In this document: positions 23,520 to 26,500 of the stretch, one piece after another
Numbering within the stretch: position 1 is the stretch's first letter
Layout: the number at the start of each line of letters is the position of its first letter
Assembly: GCA_900234795.1 (NCBI GenBank)
Contig: LT962688.1
Span: 300,001 to 332,000, forward strand
Source of the DNA: Methylorubrum extorquens
GTDB taxonomy: Bacteria > Pseudomonadota > Alphaproteobacteria > Rhizobiales > Beijerinckiaceae
Length of the DNA stretch: 32,000 nucleotides
Direction: 5' to 3'
Made by a program: the position numbers and the translations under genes
The notes under the pieces: generated by a model
What the model was told of the DNA's origin: nothing
What the model saw: only the letters and a program-made list of their open reading frames with translations
Databases searched by the model: none

Positions 23520-26500
23520 GCCCACCATCCGCGTCGCCATCGTCACGCTCGACAATCACTTGGCGAGCGCGGTGGAACGGGCGCGCGTGCGGCTCGCGGC
23601 AGAGATGCCGGGGCTCGCCCTGAGCTTTCACGCCGCCGCGGAGTGGGAGACCGACAAGGCCGCGCTCCGGGCCTGCGAGGCGGAGATCGCACGCGCCGAC
23701 ATCGTCCTCTCGGCGATGCTGTTCCTCGACGAGCACGTTCGCGCGATCCTGCCGGCGATCCAGGCACGCCGCGCGAGCTGCGACGCGATGATCGGCTGCC
23801 TCTCGGCCTCCGAGATCGTGCGCACGACCAAGCTCAACCGCTTCGACATGAGCGGCACCAAGCGCTCGGCCCTCGACTTCCTGAAGCGGCTGCGCGGCAA
23901 GCCGGGCGCGGAGGGCAACGCCGCCCGGCAGATGGCGCTGGTGCGCAAGCTTCCGAAGATCCTGCGCTTCATCCCCGGCTCGGCGCAGGACGTGCGCGCC
24001 TATTTCCTGACCTTGCAATACTGGCTCGCGGGCTCGGACGAGAACGTGGCGAGCCTCGTGCGCTTCCTCGTGCAGCGCTACGCCGCCGGCCCCCGCGCCG
24101 TGTGGCGGGAGATCGCCGCCGCGCCCGCGCCCCAGCATTATCCCGAGACCGGCCTCTACCATCCACGTATGGCCGACCGCGTCGGCGAGAGCCTGTCCGC
24201 CCTGCCGACCGTGCCGGGCGCCCGCGGCCGCATCGGCCTGCTGCTGATGCGCTCCTACGTTCTGGCCGGCAACACGGCGCATTACGACGGCGTCATCGCC
24301 GCCCTGGAGGCCAAGGGCCTCTGCGTGGTGCCGGCCTTCGCCGCCGGGCTCGACAACCGCCCCGCGGTGGACACCTATTTCACGGTGAACGGCCGGCCGG
24401 CGATCGACGCATTGGTCTCGCTCACCGGGTTCTCGCTGGTCGGCGGGCCGGCCTACAACGACGCGGCGGCGGCCGAGGCGACGCTGGCGCGGCTCGACGT
24501 GCCTTATCTCGCCGCCCACGCGCTGGAATTCCAGACGATCGAGCAATGGGAGGCGGGCAGCCGCGGCCTGTCGCCGGTCGAGGCGACCATGATGGTCGCA
24601 ATCCCCGAACTCGACGGCGCCACCGCACCGATGGTGTTCGGCGGCCGTTCCTCGGCCTCCGGCCCCGGCAATGCCCGCGACATGCGCGTGCATCCCGAGC
24701 GCGCCGAGCGGCTCGCCGCCCGGATCGATCGGCTCGTGTCCCTGCGGCGCCGGCCCAAGCGCGAGCGGCGCCTGGCCGTCATCCTGTTCAACTTCCCGCC
24801 GAATGCCGGCGCTACCGGCACGGCCGCCTTCCTCTCGGTCTACGCCTCGCTGCTGAACACCCTGCGCGGCCTCAAGGCCGAGGGCTACGACGTCGCGGTG
24901 CCCGACAGCGTCGATGCGCTGCGGGAAAAGATTCTCGGCGGCAACGCCTCCCGCTACGGCACGCCGGCCAACGTCCAAGCCCGTGTTTCGGCCGAAGATC
25001 ACGTCCGCCGCGAAACCTACCTGCCCGAGATCGAGGCGCAATGGGGCCCGGCGCCCGGCCGCCACCAGAGCAACGGGGCCGACATCCTCGTGCTCGGCGC
25101 GCAGTTCGGCAACGTCTTCGTCGGGGTGCAGCCCGCCTTCGGCTACGAGGGCGATCCGATGCGGCTGCTGTTCGAGCAGGGCTTCGCGCCGACCCACGCC
25201 TTCAGCGCCTTCTACCGCTGGCTGCGCGAGGACTTTTCCGCCGACGCCGTGCTGCATTTCGGCACCCACGGCGCGCTCGAATTCATGCCCGGCAAGCAGG
25301 CCGGATTGTCGGAAGCCTGCTGGCCCGAGCGGCTGATCGGTGCGCTGCCCAACATCTACCTCTACGCCGCCAACAACCCGTCCGAGGGCACGCTGGCCAA
25401 GCGCCGCTCCGCCGCGACGCTCGTGAGCTATCTCACCCCGAGCCTCGCCGCCGCCGGGCTCTATCGCGGCTTGAGCGACCTCAAGGCCTCGGTTGAGCGC
25501 TGGCGCGGTCTCGAACCGGAAGCGACGGCTGAGCGGACGGCGCTCGCCGTGGTCATCCAGGCGCAGGGTGCGGCCGTCGATCTGGTCCCGGCCGAACCCG
25601 CTTGGGCGGGCAACCCCGCCCCGCAGGTCACCGCGCTCGCCGCCGCTTTGTTCGAACTCGAGCAGACGCTGATCCCGCACGGCCTGCACGTGATCGGCCA
25701 GGGGGATGGTCGGCGAAGAACGTGTCGATCTACTGCTCGCCCTGGCGGAGGCCTCGCACGGGCTGAAGCCGGCCCGCGCCGGGATCGAGCTCCTGATCGA
25801 GGGCACGTCCCTCAGCGAGGCGCTAGCCGCCGCGGCTCTACCCGCCGATGAGACCCATCGAGCCGCCTTCGCCGACCTCGCCCGGATCGATGCCGACCTC
25901 GCCCGCGACAGCGAGCTGCCCGCGCTGATGCGGGCCCTCGACGGGCGCTTCGTGGCCCCGGTCGCGGGCGGCGACCTGCTGCGCAATCCCGGCATCCTGC
26001 CCACGGGGCGCAACCTGCACGGCTTCGACCCTTTACCGCCTGCCCACGGCCTTCGCGCTGGCCGACGGCGCCCGCCAAGTGGCGCGGGTGCTGGAGCGTT
26101 ACCTCGAGGAAGGCCGGGCCCTGCCGGAGAGCGTCGCGCTCGTCCTGTGGGGCACCGACAACCTGAAGAGCGAGGGCGGACCCATCGCCCAGGCGCTGGC
26201 GCTGATCGGCGCGGCGCCCCGCTTCGACGGCTACGGCCGCCTCGCCGGGGCAGAGCTGATCCCGCTCGAACAGCTCGGCCGCCCGCGCATCGACGCGGTG
26301 GTCACGCTCTCCGGCATTTTTCGCGATCTTCTGCCCCTGCAGACCAAGCTGCTTGCGGAAGCGAGCTTTCTCGCCGCCAGCGCCGAGGAGCCGGCCAACA
26401 AGAACTTCGTGCGCAAGCACGCACTGGCAATCCAGGCCGAGCAAGGCTGCAACTTCGAGACGGCAGCCCTGCGGGTCTTCTCCAATGCGGAGGGGGCCTA

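Follow-up and report, generated by a model that had tools for sequence, protein, structure and literature searches.

Two single-base insertions splitting bchH in the Methylorubrum extorquens TK 0001 reference sequence are very probably residual assembly errors

The bchH locus and its reading frames

The window, i.e. the whole stretch of DNA analysed, 32,000 nucleotides in length, corresponds to positions 300001-332000 of LT962688, the genome sequence of Methylorubrum (Methylobacterium) extorquens TK 0001 (DSM 1337), a soil isolate from Poland. ORF coordinates in the window are converted into those of the published TK0001_v2 annotation by adding 300000, and the encoded proteins carry TK 0001 accessions, such as SOR26958.1 and SOR26983.1, with MicroScope-style product names. 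The gene under study, bchH, is contained within an ordinary alphaproteobacterial photosynthesis cluster of the bchFNBHLM-lhaA-puhABC type, with bchF, bchN and bchB upstream and bchL, bchM, lhaA and puhA downstream. This localization within a bacteriochlorophyll gene cluster, established by Pfam on called genes, distinguishes BchH from CobN. The features of the locus are reported in Table 1, where neighboring genes were assigned by Pfam matches on the genes called in identical loci.

Table 1. Features of the window, in window coordinates. Short-read contigs are given with the run from which they derive and the part of the window that they cover.
Feature	Position	Strand	Remarks
bchP	13934-15127	-	Pfam
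pucC-like gene	15132-16511	-	Pfam
bchG	16508-17395	-	Pfam
ppsR	17518-18978	-	Pfam
B12-binding regulator	19006-19893	-	Pfam
bchF	20150-20653	+	Pfam
bchN	20650-21918	+	Pfam
bchB	21924..23519	+	intact; overlaps the bchH start by 26 nt; PF00148/PF08369 in contigs L081/L100
bchH, magnesium chelatase subunit H	23494..27212	+	two extra bases here; probable true gene 3717 nt, 1238 codons
ORF in frame 1 as written	23494..25851	+	ends at the stop at 25849-25851
bchH segment 1, frame 1	23494..25704	+	codons 1-737, ending ...HVIGQG; NF009942 positions 1-752
G5 run with first, probably spurious, base	25701..25705	+	G4 in same-strain short-read assemblies and in the remaining M. extorquens-group sequences compared
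TGA stop, frame 1	25849..25851	+	reached after 48 out-of-frame codons; end of annotated TK0001_v2_0377
bchH segment 2, frame 2	25706..26033	+	about 109 codons, MVGEERV...LHGFDP; NF009942 positions 753-873
T3 run with second, probably spurious, base	26032..26034	+	TT in same-strain short-read assemblies; CT in CM4 and M. rhodinum
bchH segment 3, frame 3	26035..27212	+	from the Y of YRLPTAF... to the stop at 27210-27212; NF009942 positions 876-1242
bchL	27209..28102	+	intact; overlaps the bchH stop by 4 nt
bchM	28102-28833	+	Pfam
lhaA	28830-30275	+	Pfam
puhA	30290-31063	+	Pfam
Downstream puh gene	31075-31779	+	Pfam
Contig L098 (ERR2849801)	1-11303
Contig L101 (ERR2849802)	11296-23015
Contig L103 (ERR2822809)	11414-20316
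Contig L082 (ERR2831461)	21207-32000

Forward-frame translation of the window revealed that bchH, as written, starts in frame 1, enters frame 2 at a run of five G residues and enters frame 3 at a run of three T residues. The same two sites are marked by a change of frame in the third-position GC signal of a codon-position profile, a measure that does not rely on homology. When the window was aligned with five intact bchH genes of Methylobacterium/Methylorubrum, a one-base gap was required at each site and none elsewhere in a 540-nt stretch, and the three fragments are collinear on NF009942, the NCBIfam equivalog model of BchH. Translation, GC profile, alignment and model mapping therefore agree with the initial annotation, in which the gene had been described as lying in three frames because of two non-compensating +1 insertions. 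The coordinates assigned there to the runs, the stop and the frame segments were all recovered in the window, and the junctions between segments were confirmed by the five-gene alignment and the NF009942 model. Deletion of one G and one T, likewise proposed at that stage, was reproduced and generates a single bchH ORF of 3717 nt and 1238 codons, with the junction HGFDP-YRLPTAF and a single terminal stop.

The protein encoded by the repaired ORF matches NF009942 over residues 1-1229, corresponding to model positions 1-1242 of 1245, with a score of 2270.6 bits vs a cutoff of 1166, and TIGR02025 with a score of 1505.8 vs a cutoff of 829. The structure of Synechocystis ChlH (4zhj) is also matched, with E = 2.8e-281, and the scores of CobN models on the repaired protein are far below their cutoffs.

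The TK 0001 annotation itself already shows bchH as split, though only as two fCDS fragments. TK0001_v2_0377, reported as "fCDS bchH fragment ... (part 1)", extends over 323494..325851, and TK0001_v2_0378, reported as bchH "(part 2)", over 326079..327212, with its start at window position 26079 (Belkhelfa et al. 2019, PMC6595629 supplement). The middle segment in frame 2, which contains a conserved motif, is absent from the MicroScope annotation. In the supplementary expression table for TK 0001, bchB is located at 321924..323519 and bchP at 313934..315127; the bchH fragments are transcribed and drop together with these two genes after methanol shock, with log2 fold changes of -2.3 to -2.7 (PMC6595629), a joint fall as expected of a normal operon.

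Same-strain short-read assemblies and related strains

Logan short-read contigs, derived from ERR28xxxxx runs, tile the window from 1 to 32000 with 0 mismatches and only two gaps, at positions 25705 and 26034. The tiling was obtained from contigs L098, L101 and L082, in addition to L085-L091, L095, L099, L103 and L105. At the first site the sequence GGCCAGGGGATGG, containing four G residues, is found in L081-L085 and L087, while at the second site the short-read contigs read GACCCTTACCG, containing TT. The repaired BchH of the window is identical, residue for residue, to a protein of 1238 aa (P0001) encoded on 15 Logan contigs, one contig of 23,426 bp being common to "20 or more" samples, and the same G4/T2 state is displayed by 15/15 short-read contigs. 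G4 and T2 on resequencing, named beforehand in the initial annotation as the result that would speak for an assembly artefact, are therefore what public same-strain short-read assemblies contain.

The nearest other strains, represented by LMNP01000031.1 and CP021054.1, show 12-19 substitutions per 14-22 kb (99.88-99.92% identity), vs 0 substitutions in 32 kb for the ERR28xxxxx contigs, which indicates that these runs come from the TK 0001 lineage. They would correspond to TK 0001 wild type or to its derivatives, sequenced in the same laboratory, an assignment based on the complete identity of the sequences (100%) and on the agreement of dates and sample numbers. In that laboratory, 24 TK 0001-derived isolates were sequenced by MiSeq and 24 RNA-seq libraries were produced (PMC6595629). 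The ERR28xxxxx sample numbers match these 24 isolates and 24 libraries, and their accession range fits PRJEB27428/29054/29055, the projects cited in that study. As for the other strains, identity with TK 0001 is 99.91-99.92%, across 23 kb or more, for the draft genome GCA_001423385.1 (LMNP01000031.1) and 99.85-99.88% for CP021054.1, labelled M. zatmanii; TK 0001 has therefore very close relatives in other genome collections.

Separately, a nested inverted repeat, GCATCATC ... TCCGAAAG-ccggcaaccac-CTTTCGG ... GACGATGC, is located at 11288-11330, in the intergenic sequence between a 6-phosphogluconate dehydrogenase-like gene (10253-11245, minus strand) and a cytochrome c gene (11420-13015, minus strand). 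It folds at -27 kcal/mol (z = -2.4) and is present in a single copy within the window. In at least six runs, representing three strains, all short-read contigs that extend over this area stop at 11295-11303. The repeat may be a multi-copy intergenic element, or a hairpin able to break short-read assembly graphs.

In ten BchH proteins of 1238 aa from the M. extorquens group, including those of AM1, PA1, DM4 and CP021054.1, the sequences at the two sites are GQGMV[GC]EERV, or a close variant, and HGFDPYRLP[TS]AF. Every other M. extorquens strain examined contains G4 and a two-base tract, which is TT, or CT in CM4, where bchH is an uninterrupted gene of 3717 nt. An uninterrupted ORF, of 1236-1255 codons, was similarly found in six Methylobacterium/Methylorubrum bchH genes. 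The AM1 protein differs from the repaired one at 27 residues, and AM1 was rejected as the source of the window on these differences and on the TK 0001 accessions and coordinates. When codons were compared with those of CM4, synonymous and non-synonymous differences were 56/19 in segment 1 and 40/11 in segment 3, both of which look constrained from these counts, and 2/2 in segment 2, too few to be informative. The BchL product of the window is identical to those of CM4, CP021054.1 and many Logan assemblies, where an intact bchH, coding for 1238 aa, adjoins each.

An exact look-up of the 785-, 398- and 377-aa products of the frameshifted bchH detected none of them in public gene collections or in a public collection of 15 billion proteins, which is evidence that the bchH frameshifts occur in no other assembly.

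Origin of the two extra bases

Both extra bases in bchH are very probably residual single-base insertion errors in the hybrid long-read assembly LT962688, because same-strain short-read assemblies lack both insertions and are otherwise identical over 32 kb. The real TK 0001 gene would contain G4 and TT, and would be an intact magnesium chelatase H gene of 1238 codons; polishing would have failed locally, over a bchH stretch of about 330 nt. The record was indeed built from error-prone long reads, since LT962688 was obtained from MinION reads by Canu correction and smartdenovo assembly, followed by polishing at about 134x with MiSeq reads of 2x150 (PMC5824006). By our own arithmetic, two random differences in 32 kb have a chance of about 2% of falling within 330 nt, and mutation is a less natural explanation of the clustering of the two indels within 329 nt than polishing that failed locally. 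In polished, MinION-first assemblies of the 2017 era, surviving errors are typically single-base indels at mononucleotide runs. Two points weigh against an assembly error: as a nanopore homopolymer error, a change from G4 to G5 is more typical than one from T2 to T3, and two errors would have to occur 329 nt apart in a sequence polished at about 134x and error-free over the other 31.9 kb.

The integrity of the neighboring genes had been considered in the initial annotation as an argument against a generally error-prone assembly. The other genes of the window are in fact intact, with no further indel relative to same-strain short-read assemblies, but the argument fails, given that the source is a MinION-first assembly in which about 4% of the annotated objects are fCDS. 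This share derives from 138 fCDS rows vs 3308 CDS rows in the TK 0001 expression tables (138/3446; PMC6595629) and is a rough proxy, as the tables list differentially expressed genes over several sheets; it is consistent with an assembly keeping a fair number of frame-breaking indels. The fCDS of TK 0001 include, for example, a fragment of modA and two fragments, lying next to each other, of the FAD-binding subunit of an oxidoreductase, one of which is named yagS (PMC6595629). The genome is annotated with 6160 CDS per 5.71 Mb and, combined with the fCDS share, this figure suggests that residual indels have artificially broken up many further genes.

Outside the window, dxs (TK0001_v2_4086) is reported with a "del T/-" in 24/24 evolved TK 0001 isolates (Table 1 of PMC6595629), a deletion which, according to the authors, is not directly linkable to methanol tolerance (PMC6595629). 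In the light of the two probably spurious insertions in bchH, this might be another error of the reference assembly and no mutation.

The mutations that the same authors tabulate for the isolates, with the wild type as reference, include none in bchH (PMC6595629). If isolate reads differ from the reference at bchH, two deletions are expected in all isolates, so that an assembly error is compatible with the table only by assuming that discrepancies shared with the resequenced ancestor were filtered out. Under this assumption, and with wild-type reads also showing G4/T2, the missing entry fits.

A real and very recent inactivation is very unlikely. In such a case the sequenced DSM 1337 culture, or a subclone of it, would carry both insertions and be unable to synthesize magnesium protoporphyrin IX, and the short-read runs would derive from a sister stock. 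Laboratory strains kept in the dark on methanol need no bacteriochlorophyll, and the deposited sequence was polished with Illumina reads at about 134x (PMC5824006) and is error-free in the rest of the window; both facts would fit a genuine lesion. Inactivation requires, however, that two 1-bp insertions arose independently at a distance of 329 nt while the rest of the 32 kb stayed unchanged, and the second insertion would be selectively neutral. The evolved isolates would also have had to undergo a precise double reversion, unless they came from a separate stock. The resequenced isolates come from the stock of the same laboratory, and no bchH change is reported for them (PMC6595629). The truncated products are found in no assembly of the protein collection, and independent sequencing of the strain does not reproduce the lesions, all same-strain contigs being G4/T2. 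A local sequencing problem and a very recent inactivation had both been left open in the initial annotation; in view of the same-strain short reads the former is retained and the latter is disfavored. A bchH frameshift or inactivation in M. extorquens was not found in the literature searched, and neither sequencing errors nor bchH are dealt with in the AM1/DM4 genome paper or in the 2024 paper on TK 0001 engineering.

Real insertions could also be bypassed by recoding, with full-length BchH being produced via two programmed +1 ribosomal frameshifts or by transcriptional slippage. By our own reasoning, the G5 run permits perfect +1 re-pairing of tRNA-Gly on G-GGG-G, and stalling is imaginable at the T3 site, where in frame 2 CCU precedes UUA, a codon seldom used at a genomic GC content of 69%; a T3 tract is, however, far too short for efficient polymerase slippage. 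The shift sites occur in no orthologue, all of which have uninterrupted ORFs (the ten proteins of 1238 aa and the six genes of 1236-1255 codons). Transcription of the bchH fragments and their co-regulation with the cluster (PMC6595629) would be in line with recoding, but the same-strain contigs, which behave like genomic DNA assemblies, do not contain the insertions. Around both sites, a search for repeats or hairpins which might stimulate recoding or cause mis-assembly yielded only trivial short repeats, and no Rfam family was matched anywhere in the window. Recoding is accordingly given hardly any credence.

Phase variation, in which the G run would toggle between G4 and G5 in the population and act as a pigment on/off switch, is exceedingly improbable. 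The first site is a homopolymer, but five residues are well below the tract lengths giving appreciable slippage, and the change from TT to TTT involves no slippage tract at all. In addition, a single state is observed in 15/15 short-read contigs, and related strains are fixed at G4.

Overall, there is only a slim chance that the insertions are real in the DSM 1337 reference stock, whether this is a bacteriochlorophyll-null spontaneous double mutant or makes full-length BchH by two +1 recoding events. The break in bchH is almost certainly an error of the record and no property of the organism, and represents neither a pseudogene nor a case of recoding.

Significance and relation to known systems

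The finding matters as quality control only. The reference genome of TK 0001, a strain used for methanol-based bioproduction, would contain at least two uncorrected indels, which turn an apparently intact and expressed bchH into two annotated "fragments" and leave the middle 109 codons or so unannotated. Users of LT962688, in comparative genomics of phototrophy, in metabolic models or in expression analyses based on read counts, would wrongly score TK 0001 as lacking magnesium chelatase. The sequence needs to be re-polished with the existing Illumina data, and the approximate 4% share of fCDS suggests that it contains further cases of this type.

Taken at face value, the locus resembles genuine pseudogenes of photosynthesis genes in lineages that are losing phototrophy, as the first committed step is similarly frameshifted within an intact cluster. 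It differs from them in that the lesions are missing from independent sequencing of the same strain and are accompanied neither by substitutions nor by decay of neighboring genes.

With respect to the BchH/ChlH family (NF009942, TIGR02025; Pfam PF11965 and PF02514; structure 4zhj), the repaired protein matches the equivalog end to end, and the BchH of CP021054.1 (M. zatmanii) differs from it at only 3/1238 residues; the two probably spurious bases in the record are the sole difference between this gene and the family.

There is also a likeness to nanopore-first hybrid assemblies containing spurious split genes, such as those of Bordetella pertussis, also a high-GC genome and also produced from MinION reads with short-read polishing (10.1101/381640). 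In that genome all differences between the MinION/Illumina hybrid and the Illumina-only sequence are homopolymer indels (10.1101/381640). The bchH case departs from the usual errors of hybrid assemblies in that both changes are insertions, one is located at a two-base run, and the two are clustered 329 nt apart; it shares with them the same signature of single-base indels at mononucleotide runs and no substitutions.
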